In this document: positions 4,051-64,000 of the stretch, piece after piece
Layout: each line of letters starts with the position of its first letter
How positions within the stretch are numbered: the stretch's first letter is position 1
Assembly (NCBI GenBank): GCA_964428555.1
Contig: CAYRYS010000004.1
Span: 1 to 64,000 of the forward strand
DNA: 64,000 bases
Source of the DNA: an uncultured Spirochaetales bacterium
GTDB lineage: Bacteria > Spirochaetota > Spirochaetia > CAYRYS01
Reading direction: 5' to 3'
Program-made: the position numbers and the translations under genes
Notes under the pieces: generated by a model
The model's database searches: none
What the model was told of the DNA's origin: nothing
What the model saw: the letters and a program-made list of their open reading frames with translations, nothing else

Positions 4051-5283
4051 ATGAAATTATCAGTAATTGCCTTCCGCAACATATCTCGAAATACAAGAAG
4101 AAGCATTCTCTCTGGCACTGCAATCGCGGTTGCCGCAATGTCAATCGTGATCCTCTTTTCCCTTATCGCAGGGATGCGGGCTGACTTCCGCTCAAACCTT
4201 GTCCGATATATTACCGGAGACATCCGGCTCCGGACTGCAGAATATGACGAAAATGCCCATCTCTTTCCGCTAGGAGAAGCAATGATCAATGCCGGTACCC
4301 TGGTAGAGGAGCTTGACCAGGTTCAGGGTGTAACCGCTGTTTCACCTCGCGTACAATTCCCGACTGCAATCTATCAAGAGGGCCGCACTTCCAATGCATT
4401 GGGATTCGGCATGGATTTTGAAAATGAAGAGGAGTATCAGAATATTGGGGATTACATTATCGAAGGCCGGCTTCCTGAGGCTGGGGAGAATGAGACAATT
4501 CTCGGCCAGGGGCTGAGCAACGAGCTTGGGCTTTCTGTTGGCGACAGCTTTACCATCCTCTCCAGAACACGGGGTAGAGGGACAAACGCAATAACCCTGC
4601 ATATAACAGGGTTGATCAATTTTACAACTGCAGGAATGGGGAACAGGACCTTTCTGGCTCCATTAGACAGAATACAGTATTTTCTCCGTATGCCGGATAC
4701 TGCAACAGAGATTCTGGTTCGGGTTGATGATCCGGAAAATTCCCAAGCAGTTGAGACCAGAATTGAGTCACTTATAGCACAGCAGGGCAGAGATGAAATA
4801 CAAGCCCGAAGGCTGGAAGATATATCAGAAATGTTCGGCTTTATGGAACTGGCTCAACAGATATATAACTTTATAGCCTTGGTGTTTTTCATCCTCGCAA
4901 GCACGGTTATTGTTAATACAACAATGATGGTTATTTATGAGCGGTATAGGGAGATAGGTACAATTGCAGCAATGGGTATGACCGGAGGAGAGATTGTTCG
5001 TCTCTTTTTTATTGAGGCATTCTACATCGGGCTGATAGGATCAGCAATCGGCGTGCTCCTTGGAATCGGAATTACCATCCCATTATCTATTTTCGGAATT
5101 GACCTGACAGCTGCAATGGAAGGGATTGATATTGAAATGTCAGGCACAATAAAAACACAGCTAAGCTGGTATTCAACTGTAGTTGTATTTCTTTATTCAA
5201 CCGTAATTGCCTCTATTGCAAGCCTTCTACCTTCCAGGCGGGCAGCAAAGGTTGAACCAGTTGAAGCACTACGGTCAGTCTAA
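4051..5283 (+). CDS. ABC transporter permease, FtsX/MacB-LolCE family (second copy)
   Basis: 410 aa with the same architecture (VFFILASTVIVNTTMMVIYERYREIGTIAAMG). A GGAGG RBS precedes it. Confidence 0.8.
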   Translation: MKLSVIAFRNISRNTRRSILSGTAIAVAAMSIVILFSLIAGMRADFRSNLVRYITGDIRLRTAEYDENAHLFPLGEAMINAGTLVEELDQVQGVTAVSPRVQFPTAIYQEGRTSNALGFGMDFENEEEYQNIGDYIIEGRLPEAGENETILGQGLSNELGLSVGDSFTILSRTRGRGTNAITLHITGLINFTTAGMGNRTFLAPLDRIQYFLRMPDTATEILVRVDDPENSQAVETRIESLIAQQGRDEIQARRLEDISEMFGFMELAQQIYNFIALVFFILASTVIVNTTMMVIYERYREIGTIAAMGMTGGEIVRLFFIEAFYIGLIGSAIGVLLGIGITIPLSIFGIDLTAAMEGIDIEMSGTIKTQLSWYSTVVVFLYSTVIASIASLLPSRRAAKVEPVEALRSV

Positions 5284-5301: not shown

Positions 5302-6033
5302 ATGAAACAGATGATAACAATTGTACTATTTTTAATAATTGGAGGAACCGGATTTACCCAGAGCCCTGACCAGATTATTTCCAGGATGGAGGAAAACCAA
5401 TCCTTTAGTTCAGCCAGGTTTGAAGGAAGGTTTATTATAGAAGACAGGTGGGGAACTAAAGAAACCGAGTTCACTGCATACACGAACGGAGAAGAAAATA
5501 CAAGGATTGACTTTACCTCAGGGGAAGAGCGCGGTCAGAAGATCCTGCGAACAGAGAATGAGATTTACCTGTACTATCCGGATGCTGAAGAGGTTATCCG
5601 GCTCCAAGGTGCTGCACTGCGTGAATCTGTCATGGGTTCAGACCTTTCTTACGAAGATATTGCAGGGGACAGAGATCTAACAGATGAGTATGAAATTACA
5701 CTGGAAGGGACTGAACAAATAGATGGGCACGAGTGTTACCATCTGCGTCTTGAAGCAAACACACAGCAGGTCCCCTACCCCATTCAAGAAATCTGGGTCG
5801 ACACCGAATTATATGTAATGCGGAAAGCAGAATACTATTCTCTTAACAACAGGCTACTTAAGACAATGGAGGTACTGGAAATTTCTCAGCAGAGCGGATA
5901 CGTTTTTCCCACGCATTACACTATGGTAGACCATATGAAACGTAACTCATCAACAGAATTTATCATAGAAAGTATAGACTTAAATGCCCGGTTTGACAGA
6001 GGCACTTTCAGCCTGGAGGACCTGTCATGGTAA
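5302..6033 (+). CDS. LolA-like outer-membrane lipoprotein-sorting family protein (secreted)
   Basis: Has a signal peptide. The 243-aa beta-rich protein resembles the LolA-like/DUF4367-type proteins that accompany FtsX ABC transporters. Context with the ATPase and two permeases supports the call. AAAGGAGG RBS. Confidence 0.5.
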   Translation: MKQMITIVLFLIIGGTGFTQSPDQIISRMEENQSFSSARFEGRFIIEDRWGTKETEFTAYTNGEENTRIDFTSGEERGQKILRTENEIYLYYPDAEEVIRLQGAALRESVMGSDLSYEDIAGDRDLTDEYEITLEGTEQIDGHECYHLRLEANTQQVPYPIQEIWVDTELYVMRKAEYYSLNNRLLKTMEVLEISQQSGYVFPTHYTMVDHMKRNSSTEFIIESIDLNARFDRGTFSLEDLSW

Positions 6034-7121
6034 AAAGGTCACTGCTTATTATTTTGGCCCTCGCTTTTGCAGGGGACCTGGCTTACGGAGAGGTGAATCA
6101 GTCTGTCGAGCTTCAGCTGTTCAATTCGGTACTGAGAAACACAGAGGGAGACTTCATTTTTACCGGAATTGGATCAGGAAACTGGGAGCTCTCATCAACC
6201 GGATACAGAAATGTTAAAGCTGAACTCTCCCTCTCAGCACTAATCGGAAGCCCTGCTCCGGTTTTTTCCATTGACAGGTCATTCATTAAAGTTCGGTTTC
6301 CATGGTTCAGGTTAAATGCTGGAAAAACCAGGCTTTCCTGGGGAGAGGGGGCTTTCTTTAATGCAGGGGATATACTTTTTGGATCAACCAATATCCGGAA
6401 TACAGACTTAACAAGCGAAGTACTCAGAGACCAGAGCGACTGGCTGCTTTCATTGTATGTTCCATTAGCACGGTTTTCTTTCCTTGAAGCTGTGGTACTT
6501 CCGCCGGAAGCAAACCTAAATACTCCCTTGGATTCTACTCTCTTTGTTAACTCTTCCGCAGCTATCCGTGCAATGGCAACAGTTATAGGAACAGAAATAG
6601 AAGGGGGATACCGTTTTAACGGGAATGAAGATGTGCACATACCGTACATAGCTGCACAGGGCAATCTCTTTGTTGACTGGTATGCAGCCGCTTCTGCACA
6701 GATCCCCCATGGTGAATCAGATTATTCTATAGAGGATGCATGGGATTCAACAGCTATTTCCTTCGGCATACTCCATATTCTCAGCATCGGCTATACTAGC
6801 CAGTTAAGCCTACGCTTTGAGTCCTTAGTATCCCCTGGAGGATACTGGGAAGAGCAGGAGAGCCTTGGTGCAGAATACGGTATTTACCTTTTCCCTGAAG
6901 CAAGCTTGAGTTTTGGGGATGCTCTATCAGTACAGATTCGCAGCATTATAAGCCCTATAGATATCTCCGCACTCACAAGCATAGGAGGATACTGGAATGT
7001 ATACCAAGACTTTAGTTTCCTCTCTTTTATTACAGTACAATCCGGAGAAGAACAGGATATTTTCGGTTGGAACAGATACAGCGATCTGTCGGCTACACTC
7101 GGCATGAAATTTTCCTATTAA
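6027..7121 (+). CDS. Hypothetical secreted protein, possibly an outer-membrane beta-barrel
   Basis: Signal peptide MVKRSLLIILALAFAGDLAYG. The sequence is beta-rich and ends in an aromatic residue (LGMKFSY), as in OMP C-termini. The start overlaps the upstream stop, suggesting translational coupling. Confidence 0.45.
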   Translation: MVKRSLLIILALAFAGDLAYGEVNQSVELQLFNSVLRNTEGDFIFTGIGSGNWELSSTGYRNVKAELSLSALIGSPAPVFSIDRSFIKVRFPWFRLNAGKTRLSWGEGAFFNAGDILFGSTNIRNTDLTSEVLRDQSDWLLSLYVPLARFSFLEAVVLPPEANLNTPLDSTLFVNSSAAIRAMATVIGTEIEGGYRFNGNEDVHIPYIAAQGNLFVDWYAAASAQIPHGESDYSIEDAWDSTAISFGILHILSIGYTSQLSLRFESLVSPGGYWEEQESLGAEYGIYLFPEASLSFGDALSVQIRSIISPIDISALTSIGGYWNVYQDFSFLSFITVQSGEEQDIFGWNRYSDLSATLGMKFSY

Positions 7122-7191: not shown

Positions 7192-7656
7192 ATGAAAACA
7201 CAGATATATTCATCTCCAATCGGAATGCTTATAATAGGCATGAATATAGAAGGAGCTGTTGTAAATCTGCAGCTGGTTGAAGGTCTGGAACATTCCGAAA
7301 AACCGGACGCCTCTTCTCAGTTCCTCCGGGTTTTCCAAGAGCTTAATGAGTATTTTGCAGGTTTGAGAAAAGTATTTACTATACAGACTTCAGCTTCAGG
7401 AACAGATTTTCAAAAAAGAGTTTGGAAACAGTTAACTACTGTTCCATACGGCGAAACCATCAGTTATTCGCAACTCGCACAAGGAATTAACAACCCCTAT
7501 GCAGCACGGGCGGTGGGGAATGCATTAGCTGCAAACCCCATTCCGATTCTCATTCCATGCCACAGAGTTATTACTGCTTCAGGCAAGATAGGAAACTATG
7601 CACTGGGTGCTGAGAGCAAAATGTTATTGCTGGATTTAGAGGGCAGAGACAAATAA
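7192..7656 (+). CDS. ogt: Methylated-DNA--protein-cysteine methyltransferase
   Basis: Active-site motif IPCHRVI and the HTH-like region PYGETISYSQLA are present. I chose the ATG at 7192, preceded by AGGAGGTG, over the 7171 ATG. Confidence 0.8.
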   Translation: MKTQIYSSPIGMLIIGMNIEGAVVNLQLVEGLEHSEKPDASSQFLRVFQELNEYFAGLRKVFTIQTSASGTDFQKRVWKQLTTVPYGETISYSQLAQGINNPYAARAVGNALAANPIPILIPCHRVITASGKIGNYALGAESKMLLLDLEGRDK

Positions 7657-12149: not shown

Positions 12150-12653
12150 CTACTTGGAACCAAATAAATCCCTATCAATCCCGAGAATTTCAGGATACTC
12201 TTTTAGATAAGGTTTTCCCTTATATAGTCGTTTATCATACTCTATGGTCTTTTCAGCCAAGTCACTGACTAGGTCAGCCATTGTGTTTATATTGTCCTTA
12301 AAATTGCTGATTGCCATATCTTGGAAAACACGTTCTTTGGACTTGTCCTCCAGCCGCACCTTCCACGCATCCGGCCCGTACAAAAGCGTACGAAGCTGCG
12401 GTTTTATTTCGATCCGCAGTTTTTTTATCAGCTTAGAAATTGCTAAGATCATTTCATACAGCTCAGGAACTGATAAATTCTCAGCAGAATAATAATCAGA
12501 ACCTTCTGCCAAAGCAGTAATTTTCTCCCACGCATCTGCTTCAAGCTGCAAATGGGAAATAGCCCTGTGGAGATACCTATTGTTTACGTTTTTTGTATAA
12601 TGGTCCCGCAGTCCTTCTATCTGTTTTATTAACCCTTGATCTTCAATCGCCAT
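12150..12653 (-). CDS. Hypothetical protein (167 aa)
   Basis: ORF with plausible codon usage and no recognisable motifs. Confidence 0.45.
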   Translation of the reverse strand: MAIEDQGLIKQIEGLRDHYTKNVNNRYLHRAISHLQLEADAWEKITALAEGSDYYSAENLSVPELYEMILAISKLIKKLRIEIKPQLRTLLYGPDAWKVRLEDKSKERVFQDMAISNFKDNINTMADLVSDLAEKTIEYDKRLYKGKPYLKEYPEILGIDRDLFGSK

Positions 12654-14378: not shown

Positions 14379-15164
14379 CTAGGAAATAGTTACGTCCTTT
14401 TTCGCATAGAACAGAGAACGCGGTACGGTTCCATCAATAATCTTGCGTACATCGTAGTTTCCGTTTGCTACGATAGTATCAATTCCAGCCTTTGTTACCA
14501 TTTCCGCAGCTTTTAACTTTGACTGCATCCCCCCTAATCCGAGCCTGCTTTTTCCATTAGAAACCATGCCCCGGATCTCCTCATCAATTTCATGAATCTC
14601 TTCTAATAGATTTACATCTGCAACCTGCTTTGGATCAAGCTGGTATAATCCGTCTACATCAGTAAGCAGGATCGCAAGGTCTACTTTTAGGTTACATGCA
14701 ACAAGTGCAGCAAGAATGTCATTATCAGAAAAATACCCGGTCCCTTCCAGCTCCTCCTTATTGATAAGGTCATTTTCATTAATAATGGGCACCATTCCCC
14801 GCTGCATGTATGTATTGAGAATCTCGATAATCGTCTGCTCTTCCTTAACTGAAGCAAAATTATGGTGTGTCAAAAGCACTTGCGAAATGAAGATATCCTT
14901 CATCTTAAAAAGGTCTTTATAATACTTAATCAACCGCGTCTGCCCGATCCCGGACAAGAGCTGGAGTTCAAGCGTATCCTTCGGCCGTTCGGAAATTCCG
15001 CACACCTCCATTCCGGCTGCGACCGCACCTGAGGATACAATAGTAACCTCGTGTCCTGCAGCATGAAGTGCAGAAATCTCTTTTACCTTGTCTGCCATCC
15101 AGAAGTAGTCAATTCTATTATTTCTGCTAATGAGCGCGCTTCCTGCCTTTATTAGGATTTTCAT
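14379..15164 (-). CDS. proB: Glutamate 5-kinase (short form, no PUA domain)
   Basis: MKILIKAGSALIS... amino-acid-kinase fold. Its ATG overlaps the proA stop (ATGA). Confidence 0.85.
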   Translation of the reverse strand: MKILIKAGSALISRNNRIDYFWMADKVKEISALHAAGHEVTIVSSGAVAAGMEVCGISERPKDTLELQLLSGIGQTRLIKYYKDLFKMKDIFISQVLLTHHNFASVKEEQTIIEILNTYMQRGMVPIINENDLINKEELEGTGYFSDNDILAALVACNLKVDLAILLTDVDGLYQLDPKQVADVNLLEEIHEIDEEIRGMVSNGKSRLGLGGMQSKLKAAEMVTKAGIDTIVANGNYDVRKIIDGTVPRSLFYAKKDVTIS

Positions 15165-18852: not shown

Positions 18853-21800
18853 TTAGTTTATAAATTTCACCTCCCTACAATGGGCTAACATGCGTTTAAA
18901 ATGATCTCTCTCAACAGCAGGCCAGTGAAATCCCAATTTTGAAAGTAATCGGTTTGTATAGTCAGCTTTTACTAAGTATCCTGTCATATGGGGATTATCC
19001 AGTATATGCGAGTGTAGAATAAGGTTTTGGATATATGGATATATCTCCGGATTCCTGCTTTGCGCATAGAGAAGATCATAGAATTCTTCAATTTCCATAG
19101 TTTCTATTTCTTTTCCGCACCTCTTGAGAAAAGAGCCAAGGTCATACAAACTCAGCGTATTCGGATTTACAATGTGAAAGCATGACTGTATTTTCTCTAG
19201 TGGATTCGCGATTAGGCGGGTAACGGCTTCTGCTGTTTTATCAACAAAAGAAATATCAAATACCTTGTGCTTAAGGTTCGGAAAAGCCTTTAGTTTTATA
19301 TAGGACTGTAGCGCAGTATAAAAGGCATTCTCCCTAATATTCTGCTGAAATATTCCGGTCTCAGAGTCAAACATTATGTTTCCGACTCTGAAGATTACAT
19401 ACCGTTTTCCCTCTAATGCCTTTTTACGTATCAAGTCTTCACCAGTAATTTTTGTATGCACATAATGATTGTCAGAATTCTCCTCAGCATTGTCATATTC
19501 AGTAAAAAAAACAATATCATCTTTCTGCTTCATATGAGCTGTGCCTACACTAGTGGTAGAAATATGATACATATCTTTTTGCTTCCCAGCTTCCGCGAAT
19601 TTCAGGATATGAGAAACTGCAGTTACATTTGCTGCATAAAATTCCTCATATTTTCCATAATGTTTAACTAGAGCAGCTGAGTTGATAATACAATCTACTG
19701 TGTTTGCTAGATAATCATACTCTCTGCATCCCATATCCGGCTTTGCAATATCTCCCTGATAAACGTAGAGACGGCCGGCATATTTTTTGGTTAGATTTTC
19801 TCCGAAATAATTATGAAAACTGCTGCAAGCTCTCTGTATAGGGGTTTCCGCATTTTTCTCCCGAACAATAAGGTGTACTTTTGCTTTTGGAAATTCTTTC
19901 AATACCTCTCTGGTTAAGTAGGCACCTAAGAAACCGGTAGCTCCTGTTATAAGAATATTTGTATAATTAGCTGTATGAAATACTGGAGCAGCAGCGGAAA
20001 CACGACTATTGTATTCTCTCTGCTTAACACCAATAGCCTGGTAAATCTGATTCTCATCCTTAAAATCGTGGGCCTTCTTTCTTAACCGTGTTATTGCAGA
20101 TACCATCTCAATATTCAGCTTTTTCATATGCAGAGCAAGGCTCTCCGGTGTCTCATATTCGAATATTGCATTTAATGAAAGCCGGTATTTTTTTGAAAGC
20201 TCAGCATGAACCTGCACTGCCTTTATTGAGTCTCCTCCTATCTCAAAAAAGTTTTCATAGATACCGATCCGGTTAAGTCCGAGAACATCTTCCCAAACCT
20301 CTATAATGCATTCCTCGCATTCATTTCTAGGAGAACAGTACTCAACACCCGGCCCTCCAGTACCACTAATATCAACAAGCGCTTTTCTATCGATTTTTCC
20401 GTTTTTTGTGACAGGAAATTTCTCAAGGGGAACAATCACTGAGGGCACCATATAACTAGGAAGCGCAGCAATTAGGCTGTTCCGTATTTCTTGTATTGAC
20501 CCATTAAGTACACCTGTAACATACGCTGCAATGTATTGATTTCCATGTTTATCTTTTTTTGCCATTACCAATGCATTTTCAATGGATGGAATAGTTCTTA
20601 GAGTGTGTTCAATCTCACCAAGTTCAACCCTGTTACCCCGGATTTTCACCTGATTATCAATCCTGCCTAAAAATTCGATTGTTCCGTTTACCAGCCACCT
20701 GCCAAGGTCCCCTGACCTGTATAGTTTCTTATCTTCAACAAAGGGATTTTCCACAAAGCGTTGTTTTGTTAGTTCTGTGTTATGGTAATACCCAACACCA
20801 AGCCCGGCGCCCCCAATATACAGTTCCCCGGGAGTACCAATAGGTACAGGATTTTTGTAGGCGTCTAATACATATATTTCATGATTATGAATAGGCTTCC
20901 CGATTGACGGCTTTTTCGTGTACCGGTTATCGGTACGAACCAATTGACTCGTTGAAAAAACAGTTGTCTCAGTTGGGCCATAGAGATTATATAAGGAAAA
21001 AGGCAGTGTATGCTCAGGAAATTCAGCAAGCTCATCCCCGCCTGTTAAGAGAACACGAAGCTGTGTATTTTCGCGCTCCCAAGATAGGGAGAGAAGGCGG
21101 TTTGTTATTGGCGAAGGTTGAAAAGTTATTGTGATTGCATTTGCCCCGAGCCAATGCTGAAGGTCCTGTGGACTTAAACGCACCATGGACGGAGTAATAT
21201 ACAATGTAGCACCGCATGTAAGTCCAGGCCACAGCTCCAGTGCCATTGCATCAAATCCAGGAGAAGCAGCAAGTGTCATCCTATCTGTATCAGAGACTCG
21301 GTACTCTGATCGATAAAAATGCAGGAGGTTCACAAAGCTATTATGAGAGATCTCTACACCTTTCGGGTGCCCTGTAGATCCGGAAGTATAGATTATATAA
21401 GCAGGGTCATTGCTTTTAACATTACTCGTAAAAGAAGAAACTTCGCCCAGAGTATTTTCATCATCCATAATAACTGGATCAATATTCTGAAATATATGAG
21501 CATCCTGTTTAAAGCAAAGAGCAGCCTCAGCCTTACTGTTTTCAAGGATGTACTTTACCCGTGCCTCTGGGTACTCCCGGTCAATGGGGAGATAAGGTAT
21601 TCCGTTCTTCATTACTGCAAGTATGCTTATTACAGTATAAATGGAAACATCAGCAAGCACTAAGACAGGCTTTGTTTTATTTGTAATCCTTTGCTTTAGG
21701 ACTCCAGCAAGATAATTTGCACGTCTATCCAGCAGTCTGTAGCTTATTTCCGTATTCCCTTGCACTATCGCGGTTTTTTCCGGAAAACGCTGCACAGCCT

Positions 21801-24800
21801 CCTGAAATAAACTAAGAATTGTTAAATTTTCTCCTTCTAAATACTCTGGTTTTTTTAGTCCTTGAAATTCTTCCAAGAGGAGCTTCTTCTCTTCAGTACT
21901 GATACAAGGAAGCTCGGATAATTTCCTATCAGGCGCTTGCGTGCTCAGCTCCAACATAGATATAAAGCGCTGAGCAATGAGGAACACATACTCATCAGGA
22001 TATATATTCTTATTATACAGAAATCGGATCCTTAACTCATTCTCAGGCAATATCTCAATATTGAATGAATACTCTGTCTGTTCAAAAGCAGTGTAAGAAA
22101 GAACCTTTGCCCTCCCTGCATTACCGATATACTCATGGCCGATTAGAGGAGTTTCACTATCATAATTTTCAAATCCATAAACGTGCTTAACTACATTCTT
22201 GCCGAACATGCTGTTTATTTTGTACAAAGGATAAAATTGGTGCTCAGTTCGAATTTCTGCAGCAGCTGTTCTTATACAAGAAGAAACACTAGCCTCCGGA
22301 TCCGCATCCACCCGTACAGGGAGAATATTAATACAGAGTCCTGCTATTTTATCCATGCCTTCTACCTCTGGCGGTCGTACTGTTGACACAGCTCCAAAGA
22401 CAGCTTCTTCTGTTCCTGTACTCTTGGCAATCAGCAATCCCCAAATAGTCTGCATCACAATATTTAGGGTAGTCCCAAAACTCTTGGCTAATTCCCGAGT
22501 GCGGCCTGACAATTCCGGAGAACAGCGAAACTCCTGCTGCCTTGGTGCATACTCAGTATCCCCATGATAAAATCCCGGTATTTCAGATGCTTCTCCTATT
22601 CCCTTTAAATATTCTCTCCAGTATTTTTCACTGTTTTTATACCTTTGCTTTGAAAACCATTTTTCATAAACAAGCAATGACGGACTAGGCTCATACCCTT
22701 TATGACTTCCCACTATCCGGTTTAAAAGTTCATCCACTATCTTGAACATACTCCATCCATCAAGAATAATGTGATGAAAACAGATTAATAACCCATAGCA
22801 GCCTTCTCTTCGTTTCTGTATCCGCACTCGGAACAAGGGCCCCCTGGCAAGCAAAAAAGGGGCTTTTCTCTCATTTTCCAAAATCTGCTTCCATAGCTCT
22901 TCTTCAGAGGCAGATTCAGAGTGATCATATTCCTTTACATCCGGATCCACTCTGCGCAAAACTACCCTCAGCGGCTCAGTCAGATGATCAGAGAGAAAAA
23001 TACTCCGCAAGGCTTCATGTGTACGGTGAAGCTGTACCACAGCGTCTGTTACTTCAAACACATCAATTTCACCTTCCAGTATTACCTCCATAAGCTCAAA
23101 ATACGCTTTTGAATCAGGGTGTTTTACAGCCTGTACAAGCAGCCCCTGTTCCAGCGGAGTCAATTTCCCAAGCCGTTCAATTGAAGAAATCTCAACCTGC
23201 TCCTTTATGGCATTCCAATCTTCTCTGTGTAATCCAGGCAAGAACAGGTCCCCTGGAGTTGTCACCCTTTCCTGTTTTGTCTGCAAAAAACGCAGCACAG
23301 TTCTCAGTTCATTCTTAAAAGCAATTGGAAATACTGCCGGATCATTCACAGGAACTCCTTCAGCATGTATTTCAAAAAGCGTGTGCAGTTTACCTTCATG
23401 GATCCACGCATTTATAGAGAAAGGATAGGGTTGACGGTTTTGGCATGCAGAGGTTAGCCGCAATTCTTGCAGATCCAGCATTCTGTTGTCATTACCGGAA
23501 GCATCGATTTCTCCGAGAAAGTTAAAACTTATTTCAGGCATAATACTGGGAACTTCATTATTCTTAGACAGATACACAAAAGGCGCATACCAAAACCCTT
23601 TATCCGGCACCATGAGAAGCCGTTCTTTCACAGAAATCATATTTTCTTCAGGATTATGTAGGTACTGAAGAAGAAGAGGATAAAAACTGGTAAACCATCC
23701 AATGGTATCGCCGCAATCCAGGTCAAGGACATCCTCTCTACCGTGAGTTTCTTTCATAATGTAAATAGTATCGAGCTCCCCCCATTGATACAAAGCTCTA
23801 GATAAAAGAGTAAGCAGTACAGCTTCCATGGACATCCCATAGATCTGCTGGGCCTTCTGGGCTAATGAAGCTGTCTCATCAAAACTAATTTCTATTTCCT
23901 CAGAAAATACGGTACAGGACTTTCCAAACACCTGTTTATCGAAAAAAACGCACTCACCCTTTTCCGATAATTGTTTGTTCCAATATTCAATCTGCCAATC
24001 CACAACCCCGCTTTCCAATGTTGTATACAGTTTTTCTGTCCACCCCTTAAATGAAACACTTGATCGCTTCAAGGATGTATTAGGAGCGGACAATCCTTTT
24101 TCTATCATAACTTTCAGGATATTCCAGGACACGCTGTCAACACAAAGATGGTGAATACAAAGTTTTAAAAATTGGACACCATCTTGGTAATAGAGTTTGT
24201 ACCCCCCCACAGGACCTTGTGCAATATTAATCTTAGATGCCAGCTCATCCTCTTCCTGCCAAGGGACTATCATCTCAGTTCCTTCAGGCATTATCTGCTG
24301 ATAAAGCACTTCTCCTGTTTCCGTATTAAGGGGATACAAAGTACGGAGCGCTTCTTGGGTATCCACTATCTCCTGTAACACCCTCTGCAAGTCTGTAGGA
24401 TCTATTGGTTCAGCAAAGGAAAAGAGCGCTTCTTGTGCCCAGTAGTGCGGATTATTCAAGCGAAGGGAGGAAAACCATTTTTGAATAGAAGAAAGCCGGA
24501 ATGTCCCTGTCTCCTGTACAGTAACCGCAACTTCTCCTTCCGCAAGTGAATTGATCTTACCCGATAGTTCTGTAAGCACTGGAGCAGCAAAAACATCGGA
24601 TACTGTACACTTGTACCCAGACTCACGAAGAGCAGTACAGACCATAATGGCTTTAATTGAATCGCCGCCTATGTGAAAAAAATTATCATTTTTTTCAATA
24701 GAAGAAGCGCTTAGTACAGACTTCCATGCTGAAAATACTGCCTTTTCCTTTTTAGTAAGGGAAGAATAGCTGCTGGAACCAGAGATTTCATACTGACCCT

Positions 24801-27639
24801 GTCCATGCATACACTGTTTTGCCAAAGCCTTTCTATCTATTTTACCACTTTGGGTTCTTGGAAATTTTTCGGTATCATGAAAAAACCCGGGCACCATGTA
24901 TCCTGGGAGTTTTTCACTCAAGAGCTTACGTATTCCTTCTATAGATATTTCCTTATTTTGTATAAAAACGGCATGAAGCGAAAAGGTGCCTGTAGTTTCT
25001 TTAACAGGCACGACAACAGCATGCTGAATTTCAGAGAAGCCATGTAATGCAGCCTCAATTTCGCCGACCTCCACTCTGTGGCCACGGATTTTTATCTGGT
25101 TATCAATTCGCTGTATAAAACGAATATCGCCCCCGGGAAGTCTGCGGACAAGGTCCCCTGAACAGTACATCCGCATTTCCGGGAAATACGGATCCTGCAC
25201 AAAGCGATCTTGCGTAAGCTCCTCATTATTCACATACCCTAAACTTACCCCAAGCCCGCTAATACATAGCTCCCCTGACCAGGCCTCAGGTAATACTTTC
25301 CTGTATGTGTTCATGATATACACAATACTGCTTGGTTCAGGCTTTCCAATATTTACAATATTTGCTTTAAGATCATCCATTCCCAGCTGTTTCAAGGTCA
25401 CATAAATAGTTGTTTCTGTAGGTCCATATTGGTTTAGTATCCGTATATGAGAATACTTTTTTTTCCATTCAATAAGTGCAGCAGGAGTAAGTGCTTCTCC
25501 GCCTAGGATTACACACCTAAGAGACCGGCACTTGGCTTCTCCTGAAAGTAAATCCTGATTTACAACTCCGTAAAAAGATGAAGGAACTTGTGTAAATACC
25601 GTAACCTTATAAGCTTCAAGCAGATCTAAACAAGCAATAGGATCGGTTGTTACCGCCTTGGGCACAATCACAAGCCGGCCGCCGTACAGCAGGGGCGCGA
25701 ATATTTCCATAACAGAAGGATCAAATATGAATGAATGAAACATAGTCCAAACATCATTGCAGCTAATTCCGAGGGGATTATCAAAATGCAGTAAAAGGCG
25801 CACAATGTTCTGATGAGAAACAAGCACTCCCTTAGGTTTGCCGGTAGTTCCGGAGGTATAGATGATATATGCTCCGTTTTCAGGAGATAGCTGACTAGGC
25901 TCTGTACGGGCAGGCTGCTGAGATAAATGATACATATCTTCAATATCCACGGACATAGTATTTCCGAAGCCCTGACTTTTTTTGGATTTAATAAGGATTA
26001 CTGCGTTACTATCCGAAAGCATGTATTCAGCTCTGCGGCAGGGTGTTTCCGGATCAATTGGAAGATACACAGCACCTGCTTTTAGAACTCCAATAATGGC
26101 GAGGATCATTGGAATGCCGCGGTCTAAAGATATCGCAATAGTATCCCCCATAGCTGCCCCTTTTTTGTTCAAATACAAGGCAATGGCACTGCTTTTCCTA
26201 TCAAGCTCTTCATATGTTATGCTTTCATGCTCATACAGCACTGCTGTTTTCTGGGGATACATTTTTGCAACGGCTTCAAAGGCAGAGACAATTGTTGCAT
26301 TCAGAGGGTATCCGCTGTTGAAATCTGTTTTTTTCTTATAAGCAGCCAATTCTGTACTGCTAAGCAGTTCTAAAGAGGAAACCGGGGAATTGTATGCTTT
26401 CAAACCGCTCTTGAATAAGTTCATCATAACCTTAGGAATTGCCGCTATTTCCTGTTCAGAAAAAACCTCAGTCTGATAATCAATTTCAAACAGGATCCTC
26501 CCTGAGCCGTCCCTTTGGTTTACATGAATAACCAAAGGGGATTGCTCATATCCGTAGAACTGCCACTGATTGTTTATGTCACATTGGTTTTCCTCATATG
26601 AAAACACAATCTGCAGTAAATCAGAGTGTATTTCCTTCTTTTTCCTTAATTCCTCTAGTAGTGAGTCATAGGGATATTTCTGGTTCCGCAGCAGTGAAGT
26701 TATGTCAGCTGCTGTCTGTTTAACAATCTCGCTAAAACTATTATTTGGGTCTATACAAATATTATATGCCATAGTATTTACAAACATACCCGCTGCAGCT
26801 TTAGCAGAACGGCTTGTTCTCCCGTGGGTTGTTGTACCAACAATAAAGCGTTCCTTGTTTTGCCAATGCAGAATTAACACTTTCAACAGGGAAAAGAAAA
26901 CAGAATAAAGCGAACAGGAGTTCTCTGCACAATAGCGCTCAAGTAATTGTTTCTCTTCATAAGACAGAGCAGTTTCATAGCGGTCTGCTTTTGGAGAAGT
27001 ATATTCAGGGAAATCGAAAGGCTCAGGTAGATCATTAAGATGGTCCAGCCAATACTGTTTATTTTTTTCTGCCCGTTCTGTAGTTAAATACCTTTGTTCT
27101 TCCTCAATGAAAGAAGCATAATAGGTATTCCTTTTTCTATCAGGAAAATTGCCCGACTCTATCAATGAACAATAGTGCACATAAATTTCCTCTGCGAGCA
27201 GCTGAAAAGTCCAGCCGTCAGAGACAAGGTGATGCATTCTCAACAGGAAGCCTGATGAACCGTCCGCGTACTCAGCAGGAAAGACTGAGATGTAATTTGA
27301 AAGATCACAGTTATCGCCTGATGTACTAATTTTATGTATCCATTCTTTCTCTTCAGACAGAGAGTTCAGGATTATAGGCTCCCTGATATCATGCTTCTTG
27401 TAATCAGTAAAACTCTGTCTGAGACCGCTTTTATCTATAACAAACTCTACATTTAATGCCGAATGCAGCCTCAGAGTATTTTCTATTGCTTTTATGAGAA
27501 GCGGAAATTGTATTTCACAGGGAAAAGCTATTCTATAGGTTAATATGCAAAGCGCAGTATTAGGGTACTTCTGAGCAGAATACCAAATCCTTTTTTGTGC
27601 ATGAGACAAGTCTGTTAATAAACCATAATTACCTATCAT
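18853..27639 (-). CDS. Non-ribosomal peptide synthetase, 2928 aa, domain order C-A-T-E-C-A-T-R (terminal thioester reductase)
   Basis: Motifs in order: HHLVSDGW (C1, near nt 27220); SGTTGKPKG, NQYGPTETT and KIRGHRVEVGEIE (A1, near 25840); FFHIGGDSIKA (T1, near 24665); HHLCVDSVSW (E-type His motif, near 24140); HHIILDGWS (C2, near 22775); SGSTGHPKG and NLYGPTETT (A2, near 21385); FFEIGGDSIKA (T2, near 20235); ILITGATGFLGAYL (NAD(P)-binding R domain, near 19940). AAGGAAAG RBS. Confidence 0.9.
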   Translation of the reverse strand: MIGNYGLLTDLSHAQKRIWYSAQKYPNTALCILTYRIAFPCEIQFPLLIKAIENTLRLHSALNVEFVIDKSGLRQSFTDYKKHDIREPIILNSLSEEKEWIHKISTSGDNCDLSNYISVFPAEYADGSSGFLLRMHHLVSDGWTFQLLAEEIYVHYCSLIESGNFPDRKRNTYYASFIEEEQRYLTTERAEKNKQYWLDHLNDLPEPFDFPEYTSPKADRYETALSYEEKQLLERYCAENSCSLYSVFFSLLKVLILHWQNKERFIVGTTTHGRTSRSAKAAAGMFVNTMAYNICIDPNNSFSEIVKQTAADITSLLRNQKYPYDSLLEELRKKKEIHSDLLQIVFSYEENQCDINNQWQFYGYEQSPLVIHVNQRDGSGRILFEIDYQTEVFSEQEIAAIPKVMMNLFKSGLKAYNSPVSSLELLSSTELAAYKKKTDFNSGYPLNATIVSAFEAVAKMYPQKTAVLYEHESITYEELDRKSSAIALYLNKKGAAMGDTIAISLDRGIPMILAIIGVLKAGAVYLPIDPETPCRRAEYMLSDSNAVILIKSKKSQGFGNTMSVDIEDMYHLSQQPARTEPSQLSPENGAYIIYTSGTTGKPKGVLVSHQNIVRLLLHFDNPLGISCNDVWTMFHSFIFDPSVMEIFAPLLYGGRLVIVPKAVTTDPIACLDLLEAYKVTVFTQVPSSFYGVVNQDLLSGEAKCRSLRCVILGGEALTPAALIEWKKKYSHIRILNQYGPTETTIYVTLKQLGMDDLKANIVNIGKPEPSSIVYIMNTYRKVLPEAWSGELCISGLGVSLGYVNNEELTQDRFVQDPYFPEMRMYCSGDLVRRLPGGDIRFIQRIDNQIKIRGHRVEVGEIEAALHGFSEIQHAVVVPVKETTGTFSLHAVFIQNKEISIEGIRKLLSEKLPGYMVPGFFHDTEKFPRTQSGKIDRKALAKQCMHGQGQYEISGSSSYSSLTKKEKAVFSAWKSVLSASSIEKNDNFFHIGGDSIKAIMVCTALRESGYKCTVSDVFAAPVLTELSGKINSLAEGEVAVTVQETGTFRLSSIQKWFSSLRLNNPHYWAQEALFSFAEPIDPTDLQRVLQEIVDTQEALRTLYPLNTETGEVLYQQIMPEGTEMIVPWQEEDELASKINIAQGPVGGYKLYYQDGVQFLKLCIHHLCVDSVSWNILKVMIEKGLSAPNTSLKRSSVSFKGWTEKLYTTLESGVVDWQIEYWNKQLSEKGECVFFDKQVFGKSCTVFSEEIEISFDETASLAQKAQQIYGMSMEAVLLTLLSRALYQWGELDTIYIMKETHGREDVLDLDCGDTIGWFTSFYPLLLQYLHNPEENMISVKERLLMVPDKGFWYAPFVYLSKNNEVPSIMPEISFNFLGEIDASGNDNRMLDLQELRLTSACQNRQPYPFSINAWIHEGKLHTLFEIHAEGVPVNDPAVFPIAFKNELRTVLRFLQTKQERVTTPGDLFLPGLHREDWNAIKEQVEISSIERLGKLTPLEQGLLVQAVKHPDSKAYFELMEVILEGEIDVFEVTDAVVQLHRTHEALRSIFLSDHLTEPLRVVLRRVDPDVKEYDHSESASEEELWKQILENERKAPFLLARGPLFRVRIQKRREGCYGLLICFHHIILDGWSMFKIVDELLNRIVGSHKGYEPSPSLLVYEKWFSKQRYKNSEKYWREYLKGIGEASEIPGFYHGDTEYAPRQQEFRCSPELSGRTRELAKSFGTTLNIVMQTIWGLLIAKSTGTEEAVFGAVSTVRPPEVEGMDKIAGLCINILPVRVDADPEASVSSCIRTAAAEIRTEHQFYPLYKINSMFGKNVVKHVYGFENYDSETPLIGHEYIGNAGRAKVLSYTAFEQTEYSFNIEILPENELRIRFLYNKNIYPDEYVFLIAQRFISMLELSTQAPDRKLSELPCISTEEKKLLLEEFQGLKKPEYLEGENLTILSLFQEAVQRFPEKTAIVQGNTEISYRLLDRRANYLAGVLKQRITNKTKPVLVLADVSIYTVISILAVMKNGIPYLPIDREYPEARVKYILENSKAEAALCFKQDAHIFQNIDPVIMDDENTLGEVSSFTSNVKSNDPAYIIYTSGSTGHPKGVEISHNSFVNLLHFYRSEYRVSDTDRMTLAASPGFDAMALELWPGLTCGATLYITPSMVRLSPQDLQHWLGANAITITFQPSPITNRLLSLSWERENTQLRVLLTGGDELAEFPEHTLPFSLYNLYGPTETTVFSTSQLVRTDNRYTKKPSIGKPIHNHEIYVLDAYKNPVPIGTPGELYIGGAGLGVGYYHNTELTKQRFVENPFVEDKKLYRSGDLGRWLVNGTIEFLGRIDNQVKIRGNRVELGEIEHTLRTIPSIENALVMAKKDKHGNQYIAAYVTGVLNGSIQEIRNSLIAALPSYMVPSVIVPLEKFPVTKNGKIDRKALVDISGTGGPGVEYCSPRNECEECIIEVWEDVLGLNRIGIYENFFEIGGDSIKAVQVHAELSKKYRLSLNAIFEYETPESLALHMKKLNIEMVSAITRLRKKAHDFKDENQIYQAIGVKQREYNSRVSAAAPVFHTANYTNILITGATGFLGAYLTREVLKEFPKAKVHLIVREKNAETPIQRACSSFHNYFGENLTKKYAGRLYVYQGDIAKPDMGCREYDYLANTVDCIINSAALVKHYGKYEEFYAANVTAVSHILKFAEAGKQKDMYHISTTSVGTAHMKQKDDIVFFTEYDNAEENSDNHYVHTKITGEDLIRKKALEGKRYVIFRVGNIMFDSETGIFQQNIRENAFYTALQSYIKLKAFPNLKHKVFDISFVDKTAEAVTRLIANPLEKIQSCFHIVNPNTLSLYDLGSFLKRCGKEIETMEIEEFYDLLYAQSRNPEIYPYIQNLILHSHILDNPHMTGYLVKADYTNRLLSKLGFHWPAVERDHFKRMLAHCREVKFIN

Positions 27640-59643: not shown

Positions 59644-62358
59644 ATGGCAAATGAAATAGAAAACTACTCAAGTTCAGTGGAAGATGTGGAAAAAGAGTTT
59701 TCCACAGACCTGAAAGAAGGGCTTTCACAAAAAACCGCTGCCCAGCGTCTGGAAAAATACGGGCCGAACAAGCTTGAGCAGAAGAGCAGTGTTTCACCGT
59801 GGAAGATCTTCTTCAGCCAGTTTAAGAACATAATCATGCTGCTTCTTCTTGCTGCAACAGTAATTTCTTTTTCTATCGGAGACTTTGTTGAAGGAATTGC
59901 TGTTGTTATTGTCATTCTTTTAAACGCCTTGTTCGGTTTTGTGACAGAGTACCGGGCTGAAAAGTCAGTAGAAGCCTTGCGGCAGATGATAACACCCACA
60001 GCAAAGGTGCTGCGGGAGGGTACGCTCTCGGAAATTGATGCTGTCAACCTGGTACCTGGGGACATCATCATCCTAGAAGAAGGAGACAGGATAACAGCTG
60101 ACGGCAGGCTTTTTGAGGCTGATAACCTAGCAGCTGACGAGGCAATGCTTACAGGTGAGTCTGAGCCTGTGAACAAACACACCAGGACAATATCATCACA
60201 AAAAAAGGTCGGAATTGCAGACAGAAAGAACATGGTCTTCATGGGTACAGCAATAACACGGGGCAACGGAAAAGCGGTTGTTACCGGAACAAGCCACAAT
60301 ACACAGATGGGACACATCTCTACAATGCTCCAGGAAACTGAAGATGAGTCCACTCCATTGGAAGAGCGCCTGGAAAAGATGGGCCATTTTCTTATTATCC
60401 TCACATTCATTGTTACAGCTGTTGTAGCTGTTGCGGGTATTCTTTCAGGCAAACCAATTATCGAGATGCTGGAAACAGCAATCGCCCTTGCAATTGCTGC
60501 TGTGCCTGAAGGCCTTCCCGCTGTTGCTACCATCACTCTGGCAATTGGAATGAAGCGCATGGCACAGAAGAACGCATTGGTAAAAAGCCTGCCTGCTGTG
60601 GAGACCCTTGGTTCAACAACAGTAATCTGTACTGATAAAACAGGCACATTAACAGAGAACCAGATGACTGTGCAGGAAATCTTCCTTCCAGGCAGAGACA
60701 TTGTTGTATCCGGCACCGGATACGCGCCGGATGGGAAGTTCCAGGAGGAGGGATCGGATATTTCTCCAGCTGATGATGATGAACTCTCCTTATTTCTTAA
60801 GGCCGGTTCTTTGTGCTCAAACGCGGTACTTACACACGAGGCGGACAAGGGATGGGGTATGATCGGCGACCCCACAGAAGGGGCCTTGGTCACTGCAGCA
60901 AAAAAAGCAGACATGGACAGAGAGGAGATGGAAGACACAGGGTACGAGCGCTTTGATGAGCTGCCATTTGACTCTGACGCGAAATTCATGGCTGTTCTGA
61001 ATAATATTCCCGACGCGGATGCAGCGGTATTTCTAAAAGGAGCGCCGGATGTTGTGCTGGATATGTGTGGAAAGGTACGCGTAAACGGCTCTGAACAAGA
61101 ACTTACCCAGGAGAAACGGGAAACATATTTACAGAAAAACAACCATCTTGCTCAGAAGGGACTGCGGGTCCTGGCTGTTGGGTATAAAAAGGGAGTTTCA
61201 AAGAGCGCTGAAATTGAAAACGAGATAGATGAGGGAATGGTCTTCCTCGGGTTCGCTGGAATACTCGACCCGCCGCGGCCGGATGTTGCCCAGGCAATTA
61301 AAGAAGCGCAGTCAGCGGGTATCCGTACAATTATGATAACAGGGGACCAGCGGGACACTGCAATGGCAATTGCACAGCGGATCGATATGCAGGGCGCACA
61401 GGGGCAGGCGATTACCGGTACTGAAATGGATGAGTTTTCCATAGATGAGCTTGCAGAGCGTCTCCGCCATAATCCTATTTTTGCCAGGGTCTCCCCAAAG
61501 AACAAGCTGGATATTGTGGATGCCTTAAATGAAAACAATGAAATAACAGCAATGACAGGGGACGGAGTAAATGACGCGCCTGCACTAAAAAAAGCGGACA
61601 TCGGCATCTCCATGGGACAGAGGGGAACCACTGTTGCAAAGGAAGCCTCTGACATGGTGCTCCTTGACGACCGGTTTCCCACAATCGTGGAGGCGGTAAG
61701 GCAAGGCAGGGTAATTTTTGACAATATCCAGAAATTCATCCACTACCTGTTTTCCTGCAACCTAAGCGAGATTATACTTATCTTTATCTCAATTCTCCTT
61801 AGGGTCCCTACTCCGGTGATTGCTTTGCAGATCCTGTGGCTGAACCTGGTAACTGATGTTTTTCCAGCACTTGCAATGGCCTGGGAGACCCCTGAAGCAG
61901 GGATTATGACTAGACCCCCGCGGGAGCCGAGCAAGCCGATTATTACAAACCGCCATAAACTCAGGATCGGTTTCCAGGGAGCTGTTATCACCCTTGGTCC
62001 GTTGTTTGCCTATCTTTTCACTTTGAACAACGGCTTCACCATGCCTGAGAGCAGGACAATCGGGTTTATGACACTTGCCCTTGTGCAGCTTTTTCATGTG
62101 TTCAATGTCAGAAGGAAAAACGGGCTTGGCTTTGATATTACTATCTTCAAAAACGCATACCTCTGGGGTGCTTTTGTGCTTACCCTAGGTCTGCAGTTCT
62201 TTGCTGTATACACCCCGTTTATGCAGACAATTCTCCATACCACAGCCCTGTCACCGAGAATGTGGCTTATTGTTCTCTGCGGCGCCCTTGCGCCAATTAT
62301 TGTGCTGCAGATAATTGCCGGAATACGAGTGCTTATCGGCAAACCGTATCAGGAGTAA
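59644..62358 (+). CDS. P-type cation-transporting ATPase, type IIA/IIB (Ca2+-ATPase-like)
   Basis: Phosphorylation motif ICTDKTGTLTEN, TGES actuator motif, hinge MTGDGVNDAPALKKADIGISMG, KGAPD nucleotide site, PEGLPAV in TM4, 10 TM helices. CAGGAG RBS. Confidence 0.85.
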   Translation: MANEIENYSSSVEDVEKEFSTDLKEGLSQKTAAQRLEKYGPNKLEQKSSVSPWKIFFSQFKNIIMLLLLAATVISFSIGDFVEGIAVVIVILLNALFGFVTEYRAEKSVEALRQMITPTAKVLREGTLSEIDAVNLVPGDIIILEEGDRITADGRLFEADNLAADEAMLTGESEPVNKHTRTISSQKKVGIADRKNMVFMGTAITRGNGKAVVTGTSHNTQMGHISTMLQETEDESTPLEERLEKMGHFLIILTFIVTAVVAVAGILSGKPIIEMLETAIALAIAAVPEGLPAVATITLAIGMKRMAQKNALVKSLPAVETLGSTTVICTDKTGTLTENQMTVQEIFLPGRDIVVSGTGYAPDGKFQEEGSDISPADDDELSLFLKAGSLCSNAVLTHEADKGWGMIGDPTEGALVTAAKKADMDREEMEDTGYERFDELPFDSDAKFMAVLNNIPDADAAVFLKGAPDVVLDMCGKVRVNGSEQELTQEKRETYLQKNNHLAQKGLRVLAVGYKKGVSKSAEIENEIDEGMVFLGFAGILDPPRPDVAQAIKEAQSAGIRTIMITGDQRDTAMAIAQRIDMQGAQGQAITGTEMDEFSIDELAERLRHNPIFARVSPKNKLDIVDALNENNEITAMTGDGVNDAPALKKADIGISMGQRGTTVAKEASDMVLLDDRFPTIVEAVRQGRVIFDNIQKFIHYLFSCNLSEIILIFISILLRVPTPVIALQILWLNLVTDVFPALAMAWETPEAGIMTRPPREPSKPIITNRHKLRIGFQGAVITLGPLFAYLFTLNNGFTMPESRTIGFMTLALVQLFHVFNVRRKNGLGFDITIFKNAYLWGAFVLTLGLQFFAVYTPFMQTILHTTALSPRMWLIVLCGALAPIIVLQIIAGIRVLIGKPYQE

Positions 62359-62621
62359 ACCGGGTATCCGCTCATCGAGTGCGCCAACTTGTTGGCGTGT
62401 ACCGAGATGACCGAGAAAAAGACAATGCCTGTACGGTCATCGAGTGATTTTCCGCTAGGAAAAATGCTTGCCCTGAGTGATTCATCGAAGATGCATTGTA
62501 TCGAAGGGTACCGAGATGACGGAGGAAATGTTAACGCCTGGGGAATCTAACGCAGCAAAGCTGGCGGTTTCAGCGTCCTCTCGATACACTGCCTCACGGC
62601 AGCACTCGAGGAGCGTGGTGT

Positions 62622-62787
62622 TCCGCAGCAATGCTAACGTTTTCCTGCCTTCAAACTCCGGCCAGCTTTCAGCTGCACGGCAAATAGCGCGGATCATTTG
62701 AACTATGTACTGGTTCCAGGAAAGAGGGTCGTGTTTATTAAATATCTTCCTTTGCGCCTTGGCGACGTTGCGAGACACTCTTCTTCT
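62622..62787. repeat. Direct repeat copy 1 (about 166 bp), downstream flank of the Rpn-family gene
   Basis: About 90 percent identical by eye to 63771..63937. Shared core ...gctaacgttttcctgccttcaaactccggccagctttcagctgcacggcaaatagcgcgg.tcatttgaactat.tactggttccagga... Carries the start of a small minus-strand ORF. Confidence 0.7.
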
Positions 62788-62812
62788 TTTCCGCTGCGCC
62801 CTCCAAGTGTGG

Positions 62813-63697
62813 TTATTTCTTCAGCTTCTCTATTTCTTCTCTGGAAAGGCCGGTTATTTTAACAATATCCTCTACTGGATAATCCATTTCAAGCATCCGC
62901 TGCGCGTCTTCTATTTTACCATCATTTTTCCATTCTTCCTGTAGTTCTTTTATTGTATCCACAAGCATGCTCTTTGCCTCCTTGTCGTTATTAAGTGATG
63001 TTATCTCTTCATATATCGATCTGTCTATCCGTTCATTTTTGAACAGGTGTTTTATCCATACTGCTAAAAGGGCTATAGTTTCCACTGATTCGCTTGAAAG
63101 AATGTCTACAAGATTTTTTGTAATGGCCTGAAAGTCTTCCCTATCTGTGTTTTCCAAGAGGAATATTCCTGAAACCGCGTTATTTATTGCAAGCAGCTCT
63201 TCTCTACCGTACTCGTTCTCTAGTATTTTGAAATACTGAAAGTCAGGGTAGTAGCTCTTTAAAAATTCATTAGGTTCTATCAATTCCCGAATTGAATCAG
63301 GAGCAGTCCATTTGCTGTTCCCATTGTACAGCAGTATTGGAAGGACAGGCGGGAGCTTTTTTACTTCCTTTTTTTCTTTTAAGTAGTCCATGTAAAAAAG
63401 GATGATGTAATTGAGCATCCGCAGTGCCATAAAACGGTCATTTGTACTTTGGAACTCAATAAACAGGTAGATGTAGGCTTCTTCCCCGTTTAATCCAACC
63501 TTTACCAAAAGGTCATCAGCGAAATCCGCGAACTCTTCAGAAATATAAGACTTTTCCACCATCGGCTCAAACACGGAGAAGTCCAGCTGGTCAGCAAAGT
63601 CCTTGCTCACAAAGCTTTCGATAAGCTCTTTTATGAGTATCTTGTTTGAAAATAGGTAGCCGTAGCCGTGTTTATGGATAAACCGGTCTTTTTTCAT
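62813..63697 (-). CDS. Rpn-family (YhgA-like) PD-(D/E)XK recombination-promoting nuclease / putative transposase
   Basis: N-terminal HKH...LFS region, PD-(D/E)XK core DDLLVKV...GEEAYIYLFIEFQS, LPPVLPILLYNGNSKWTAP, and the family-typical C-terminal tail VEDIVKITGLSREEIEKLKK. Confidence 0.7.
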   Translation of the reverse strand: MKKDRFIHKHGYGYLFSNKILIKELIESFVSKDFADQLDFSVFEPMVEKSYISEEFADFADDLLVKVGLNGEEAYIYLFIEFQSTNDRFMALRMLNYIILFYMDYLKEKKEVKKLPPVLPILLYNGNSKWTAPDSIRELIEPNEFLKSYYPDFQYFKILENEYGREELLAINNAVSGIFLLENTDREDFQAITKNLVDILSSESVETIALLAVWIKHLFKNERIDRSIYEEITSLNNDKEAKSMLVDTIKELQEEWKNDGKIEDAQRMLEMDYPVEDIVKITGLSREEIEKLKK

Positions 63698-63770
63698 ACA
63701 TATAGTATATCTGAATTTATGTATACAGGCAATAATATAGCAGTTCAGGGGAATAATTAGGATTTGATAA

Positions 63771-63937
63771 TCCGCAGCAAAGCTAACGTTTTCCTGCCTT
63801 CAAACTCCGGCCAGCTTTCAGCTGCACGGCAAATAGCGCGGGTCATTTGAACTATATACTGGTTCCAGGAGAGCTGGTCATGTTTATGAAATATCTGCCC
63901 TTTGCGCCTTGGCGACGTTGCGAGACATTTTTCTTCT
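63771..63937. repeat. Direct repeat copy 2 (about 167 bp), upstream flank of the Rpn-family gene
   Basis: See copy 1. One extra C relative to copy 1. Contains the start of the minus-strand ORF 63757..63945. Confidence 0.7.
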
Positions 63938-64000
63938 GTTTCCATAAATACGTTGATATTTCACGGAAGTACTTTTAGATAACAGATTAACCGCGTTCTC

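Follow-up and report, generated by a model that had tools for sequence, protein, structure and literature searches.

How a single nuclease gene comes to stand between two long direct copies of an unrelated sequence is the question raised by the end of the stretch analysed here, a window of 64,000 nucleotides (nt) from an uncultured Spirochaetales bacterium (assembly GCA_964428555.1, contig CAYRYS010000004.1, positions 1 to 64,000). The gene belongs to the Rpn family of PD-(D/E)XK nucleases, and the repeated sequence, which we call R1, lies once on either side of it. The question has a wider bearing: rpn genes are widespread genes for toxic anti-phage nucleases that appear, from comparative genomics, to spread in the manner of insertion sequences yet without the hallmarks of transposons. 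Neither terminal inverted repeats nor target-site duplications have been identified at them in the literature (Zhong 2023, PMC10400941).

The explanation that we favour, at about even probability, is that a single-gene rpn unit of ~980 base pairs (bp) was inserted between two convergent genes, with duplication of 173 bp of target DNA. In isolation the locus amounts to a modest duplication of local sequence; the lead lies in the fact that repeats bracket some other rpn genes as well. If it is true that long bracketing duplications mark the acquisition of rpn genes, they would be a searchable signature by which insertions could be dated and delimited, they would narrow the mechanism to fill-in of staggered breaks or to template switching near hairpins, and the direct repeats would be substrates for deletion or amplification of a toxin gene. 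If the enrichment described below is merely a by-product of repeat-rich islands, the locus is an ordinary local duplication.

The R1 repeat and the gene that it brackets

The two copies of R1 occupy positions 62622-62792 and 63771-63943. They are identical at 160 of 173 positions (92.5%; E=5e-70), with two 1-nt gaps, and their starts are 1149-1150 nt apart. The first-pass annotation of the window had described two direct copies about 90 percent identical and ~1150 bp apart, with exactly one gene, Rpn/YhgA-like, between them and a peptide common to both. All of this is borne out; what had to be corrected is the length of the repeat, which is 171 and 173 nt rather than ~166, and the starts of the open reading frames (ORFs) within it. 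Copy 1 (171 nt) is followed after 5 nt by a palindromic repeat, R2B, and holds the GTG start and the first 52 codons of the frame ORF98. Copy 2 (173 nt) is a stub copy in which the homologous start is frameshifted by a 1-nt insertion. R1 is not itself palindromic, and the ends of the bracketed unit do not form an inverted repeat with each other.

That unit (62793..63770, minus strand) measures 978 bp and consists of 73 nt upstream of the start codon, the rpn ORF and 20 nt past its stop codon. The gene (62813..63697, minus strand) is intact and encodes 294 amino acids (aa). Its product matches PF04754, the Rpn/YhgA-like (Transposase_31) family, with E=2e-25 (90 bits against a cutoff of 21) and TIGR01784 with 61.2 bits against a cutoff of 52.1. 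It is a full-length member of the family that includes the RpnL-RpnS toxin-antitoxin defence genes, with the invariant D...EFQS core: in an alignment of 28 family sequences, this protein included, the columns of D62 and of E81-F82-Q83-S84 are invariant. As regards a C-terminal HTH_Rpn_C domain and an intragenic start for the antitoxin RpnS, no match to PF27070 is on record, HTH_7 is matched weakly (residues 261-287, E=0.14), and M244 is a nearly invariant Met of the alignment. The nearest other Rpn in the protein library, at the locus that we call L008, is 59% identical.

Upstream of the gene is a promoter-like site, TTGCCT-17-TATACT (63704..63732, minus strand), which is marked by its match to the consensus and by its conservation in L008. 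The distance from the end of its -10 element to the rpn ATG is 7 nt, and no Shine-Dalgarno sequence is present; to judge from this spacing, the rpn mRNA may be leaderless. Nucleotide similarity to the L008 locus extends from 41 nt upstream of the ATG exactly to the stop codon. The conserved rpn unit is thus promoter plus ORF, and R1 lies outside it and is independent of it. A scan of viral contigs with the Rpn alignment gave only three loci, all at contig ends and not usable.

The arrangement is not an artefact of assembly. An exact-protein look-up found the same rpn gene on contig JBKHBY010000001.1 of the Spirochaetia metagenome-assembled genome GCA_046542135.1 (locus L001), which agrees with the window at 100% identity over 11.2 kb and runs 9.7 kb past its end. 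In addition, an independent Logan contig of 1179 bp (L002), also at 100% identity, begins within copy 2, crosses rpn and ends within copy 1.

No third copy of R1 was found in the 64-kb window or in the next 9.7 kb of the contig. Scans with a degenerate 23-mer (encoding ESWPEFEG) taken from the perfectly conserved core of R1 covered 185,579 species-representative genomes and the metagenome contigs of the Joint Genome Institute (JGI); each collection gave two matches, all due to chance and none extending, so that neither collection yielded R1. The flanks, compared by blastn with plasmid and phage collections, gave no match. As far as two scans of collections and the 84 kb covered of this genome show, the repeat occurs only twice and only here, which is the outcome that the first-pass annotation had associated with a simple local duplication, and the more exciting readings of R1 fail. 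R1 is lineage-specific local DNA.

Repeats at other rpn genes

Every fetchable rpn locus with at least 400 nt on both sides was surveyed, which gave 12 rpn genes. Bracketing repeats, mutually unrelated in sequence, were present at four of the 11 others. The closest parallel is L020, whose Rpn is 43% identical to that of the window: a 54-nt repeat (94% identity), formed by a bidirectional terminator hairpin between convergent genes, is separated from the ATG by 74 nt and from the stop codon by 22 nt, which nearly matches the 73 and 20 nt measured here for the 173-nt repeat of unique local DNA. Short microhomology can be seen by eye at the junctions of both loci (GCWGCGGA here, GTAACC in L020), too short to interpret. 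At L007, from Spirochaeta dissipatitropha, a 373-nt repeat (92.5% identity; 1038 and 33 nt) encloses a 55% identical Rpn and a small DUF6915 gene. On the left, the repeat consists of the last 84 codons, intact, of a distant rpn paralogue (23% identity); on the right, it is a stub that begins 33 nt downstream of the rpn stop codon. The remaining two cases are a 183-nt repeat (96%; 105 and 178 nt) on Hydrogenophilus pTH1 (L026), present in three copies and adjoining cas1, and a 110-nt repeat (86%; 193 and 94 nt), also in three copies, on Pseudomonas aeruginosa plasmids (L028/L029). No bracketing repeat was found at seven rpn genes (L007-Rpn1, L008, L017, L021, L024, L025 and L027).

When bracketing was defined strictly, as repeats within 250 nt on both sides of the gene, it was found at 4/12 rpn genes, as against 1/126 of the remaining ORFs of these sequences (Fisher p=1.6e-4). 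The suggestion of the first-pass annotation that the repeats are boundaries of a mobile or recombinogenic module is to this extent supported in spirit, in that the repeats bracket a unit of promoter plus ORF and recur at rpn loci.

The locus otherwise resembles the rpn genes already described (Kingston 2017, PMC5350276; Zhong 2023, PMC10400941), being a sporadic single-gene insert in a variable region that adjoins a toxin-antitoxin-like pair and other accessory genes. It departs from the published picture in the long direct repeats of local DNA (54-373 nt) seen here and at four of the 11 other rpn genes. These resemble the target-site duplications of insertion sequences and transposons, in that direct repeats of target DNA flank a unit and each side keeps its original continuity; they differ in being 10-100 times longer and variable between loci (54, 110, 173, 183 and 373 nt), and here there are neither terminal inverted repeats nor multiple identical copies in the 84 kb. 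Another parallel is offered by LINE-1, whose target-primed insertion produces variable, sometimes long target duplications that imply a staggered second cut. The likeness to such staggered-break duplications is confined to the variable and possibly long repeat; there is no reverse transcriptase, and the unit includes its promoter and is not a retro-copy of an mRNA, for which reason a retro-copy origin was rejected.

Some of these loci show further repeats or fragments. In L007 a GC-rich 83-nt repeat (922-1004, 3880-3962, 6249-6331 and 7213-7295) follows successive accessory genes, namely a PIN gene, two rpn paralogues and small ORFs, in a cassette-like array, and the 3' end of an rpn gene survives as a stub in an 80-aa ORF (5980-6222). 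On plasmid pTH1 of Hydrogenophilus thermoluteolus (L026) a sequence of 183-282 nt is present three times (661-942, 2702-2883 and 4059-4340) around a gene for an ATP-binding protein and rpn; as it adjoins short repeats spaced by ~67 nt and cas1, it may be duplicated CRISPR leader DNA. On P. aeruginosa plasmid p2014S05-249-1 (L028), and likewise on pY89, the intergenic repeat of ~110 nt occurs three times (2681-2789, 4076-4182 and 5333-5439) in the backbone of an integrative conjugative element or plasmid, where it sets rpn apart from the next small genes.

Insertion or rearrangement

Read in the orientation of rpn, the locus runs from a GNAT acetyltransferase gene through the palindrome R2A, a 128-nt spacer, R1 copy 2 and 73 nt to rpn, and then through 20 nt, R1 copy 1, 5 nt and R2B to the 3' end of a convergent P-type ATPase gene. 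Further tandem units, which it had been thought might follow the end of the window, are not there: the contig continues with the 128-nt spacer, R2A and the GNAT gene, and with no more R1 or rpn.

From this arrangement we infer the following course of events. The order before insertion would have been GNAT, R2A, spacer, R1, R2B and ATPase, R1 being ordinary DNA of this Spirochaetia lineage between the GNAT gene and the convergent P-type ATPase gene. The unit inserted would have comprised its own promoter, the rpn ORF and a tail of ~20 nt. Afterwards copy 2 would have stayed joined to the upstream spacer as a redundant copy, decaying into a frameshifted stub, and copy 1 would have stayed joined to R2B and kept ORF98 open. 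The duplication would resemble a very long target-site duplication, of a length that varies between loci. It might arise by fill-in of widely staggered breaks; alternatively, it might arise by a replicative template switch at forks stalled near hairpin-forming DNA, the junction of R1 and R2B lying at the foot of the palindrome.

The geometry of a single event, R1-unit-R1, fits this scheme, as do the clean junctions and the lack of any other copy of R1 in 84 kb. The separateness of R1 from the heritable rpn unit, the recurrence of bracketing with repeats of unrelated sequence, and the variability of the region downstream of the ATPase gene, described below, also speak for it. The decay of copy 2 shows in the frameshift at its homologous start. 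A relative, L012, in which the ATPase is 80% identical, offers an analogous case: an AbiE toxin-antitoxin module (DUF6088 and AbiEii) is bracketed by a 144-nt direct repeat of 83% identity (12386-12528 and 14449-14590). In its left copy the 3' end of the convergent SH3_3 gene is present as a frameshifted stub, so that there too an intact copy and a frameshifted stub bracket a defence module.

The palindromes on either side bear on both the mechanism and its rivals. R2A is an imperfect palindrome of ~142 nt, the first base of which directly follows the GNAT stop codon, just past the end of the window (L001 9485-9626). R2B corresponds to it in two parts, a main block of 109 nt (62508..62616; 83.5% identical to L001 9485-9593) and a distal arm of 31 nt (62433..62463; 90% identical to L001 9596-9626), with a 44-nt insertion before the latter; an extra partial right arm of R2, with the hairpin GTCATCTCGGTAC... 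(62399..62431), adjoins the 3' end of the ATPase gene. The stems are conserved and the loops diverged: 13 of 18 mismatches are unpaired, and the five in stems keep pairing. The R2 motifs TCATCTCGRTAC and CACTCGATGA occur in this intergenic region only, with none elsewhere in the 84 kb. R2 could be a terminator, an element of the repetitive extragenic palindrome (REP) or miniature inverted-repeat transposable element (MITE) type, or a recombination hot spot. Within 5 nt of the foot of the R2 palindrome the homology of R1 ends, and so does that of R2; together with the older, diverged R2A/R2B pair that encloses the structure, this shared break point suggests repeated events at a hairpin-associated hot spot.

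Several points weigh against an insertion of this kind. We know of no bacterial enzymology for staggered cuts 54-373 nt apart. The empty site, a locus without rpn, was not found, so that the order and direction of events were not observed: an exact-protein look-up of the ATPase returned the same arrangement only, and genomes with an 80-84% identical ATPase have entirely different genes downstream of it, with synteny lost and neither R1 nor R2 present, which marks the region downstream of the ATPase as variable. The sequence of this genome that was covered amounts to 84 kb, and R1 may have copies elsewhere. The substitutions in R1 do not look neutral, which hints at coding constraint or gene conversion. 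As to the survey, two of the five positives (L026 and L028) are three-copy intergenic repeats and may be a different phenomenon, and the situation of rpn genes in repeat-rich variable regions could by itself inflate the enrichment. Finally, rpn genes have been described as lacking target-site duplications, and their arrays have been ascribed to tandem duplication (Zhong et al. 2023, PMC10400941, section 5).

The last point leads to the main rival, which we judge unlikely, namely unequal or illegitimate recombination: either [R1+rpn] was duplicated in tandem and the second rpn then lost, or a patch of 173 bp was copied from one side of the gene to the other. It agrees with the tandem duplications of genomic regions known at rpn loci, where arrays are attributed to several types of tandem direct duplication (Zhong et al. 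2023, PMC10400941; for the arrays themselves, SI Fig. S1B as it is cited in section 5 of that paper), and with the promotion of RecA-independent recombination by Rpn nucleases (PMC5350276). The older nested R2A/R2B pair (83%) would likewise bespeak repeated rearrangement at the same spot. The likeness to the tandem arrays is that of a local direct duplication at an rpn locus; here, by contrast, the flank alone is duplicated and not rpn, and the repeat is unrelated to rpn. Recombination would require at least two events, the second a precise deletion, and there is no remnant of rpn between R1 copy 1 and the ATPase gene, a stretch filled by the R2 hairpins. Moreover, the agreement of 73/20 nt here with 74/22 nt at L020 is unexpected from random end points.

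If insertion with a long target duplication is accepted, a more general proposal can be made, which we regard as decidedly doubtful: that single-gene rpn units are mobile, that their insertion duplicates tens to hundreds of bp of target, and that Rpn itself perhaps initiates the widely staggered cuts. The sites cut might be hairpin- or terminator-forming sequences between convergent genes. Long duplications of variable length are unlike classical target-site duplications, and earlier searches would therefore have missed them. To our knowledge, the Rpn nuclease fold is not known as an autonomous transposase.

Reading frames in R1 and other proposed identities of the repeat

The first-pass annotation had proposed that each copy of R1 carries the start of a conserved small ORF, and a shared frame is indeed present. 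A block of 42 codons lies in frame in both copies, 38 of its 42 residues are identical (the synonymous Tyr codons TAC/TAT noted earlier are among its differences), and it is the sole frame open in both. The starts, by contrast, are not common to the copies. ORF98 (62482..62778, minus strand) is an orphan frame with a GTG start (62778), its N-terminal half read from R1 copy 1 and its C-terminal half through the palindrome R2B. Some 10 codons after that GTG the copies differ by a 1-nt indel, GG against GGG, the extra G being in copy 2, where the homologous ATG at 63928 opens 14 codons only (MSRNVAKAQRADIS and stop; 63884..63928, minus strand) before the insertion cuts the frame short. ORF62 (63757..63945, minus strand), the open frame through copy 2, exists only because another, non-homologous ATG at the edge of the repeat, in another frame, reads into the conserved frame; it ends 14 nt past the repeat.

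From these frames it might be argued that R1 encodes a real, lineage-specific small protein with two paralogues, ORF98 and ORF62, possibly one that regulates the Rpn toxin or serves it as an accessory factor. We think this quite improbable. In its favour, beside the open frame with 38/42 identical residues, some start codon is kept in each copy, and of nine substitutions in the block after the indel five are synonymous (P=0.029, with transitions and transversions taken into account), all but one of the nine falling in the first 56 nt. This synonymous excess is a weak, unexplained signal counter to a non-coding view. On the other side, neither protein library holds a homologue: a word-indexed search of 5.8 billion protein clusters gave no candidate for ORF98, and a full phmmer/HMMER search of 1.84 billion representatives gave three weak matches only, which were rejected because each adds up weak similarities to the internal repeats of a large, unrelated, eukaryote-like repeat protein. 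Neither small ORF matches Pfam or NCBIfam (E<=1). The codon-usage score of ORF98 is below that of ~99% of windows of real genes on the contig and ranks in the top ~10% among spurious stretches without a stop; the public assembly has no gene called at the small ORF; the start in copy 2 is frameshifted; and the AlphaFold2 model of ORF98 is uninformative (mean predicted local distance difference test score, pLDDT, 55). Half of the putative protein would be read from R2, where all differences in the ORF98 frame are non-synonymous and the second copy of which follows the GNAT stop codon, and the closest rpn homologues are without such an upstream ORF. The small ORF is at best an orphan, unverified, and its description as conserved finds no support.

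It is very improbable that R1, R2 or both are recombination sites or dispersed palindromic elements (attC-, REP- or MITE-like) parting GNAT and rpn cassettes. The ~140-nt palindrome R2, with its conserved stems, abuts both the GNAT stop codon and the end of R1, as such an element might, and multi-copy intergenic repeats part genes at the rpn loci L007, L026 and L028. Against this, R1 itself is not a palindrome, the R2 motifs are confined, within the 84 kb, to the one intergenic region, and the ends of R2 do not, by eye, fit the R''/R' consensus of attC (RYYYAAC/GTTRRRY). The genes called in the outer ~20 kb (L001) and assigned to Pfam families include no integrase, the remainder of the window (1-52800) having been seen as ORF coordinates only, with no domain scan.

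The earlier idea that the R1 copies are stubs of Rpn paralogues, prompted by an H-D motif, is effectively refuted, even if such stubs do occur, as one of an Rpn 3' end does beside the homologous gene of S. dissipatitropha: when ORF98 is aligned with the 28-sequence Rpn profile by hhalign, the probability is 0.08%, ORF98 has no PF04754 or TIGR01784 match even at E<=1, and the N-terminal motif of this Rpn subfamily, H-x-x-G-Y-x-x-L-F-S-N, is unlike KHDPLSWNQY. A conserved leader or small RNA, also put forward, finds no support either, since there is no Rfam match at E<=1 in 62300-64000, no compensatory pairs exist between the R1 copies, and the similarity to the closest rpn homologue reaches no further than 41 nt upstream of the ATG.

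Two features of the surroundings may be added. Beyond the end of the window, on the opposite strand and just upstream of the GNAT gene, is a two-gene pair (L001 7897-8444) in which a 93-aa ORF overlaps an 89-aa ORF resembling a CopG antitoxin; this toxin-antitoxin-like pair fits an accessory or defence islet. Far from the locus, at 18853-27639 on the minus strand, the window holds a very long ORF of 2928 aa, known from the ORF list alone.

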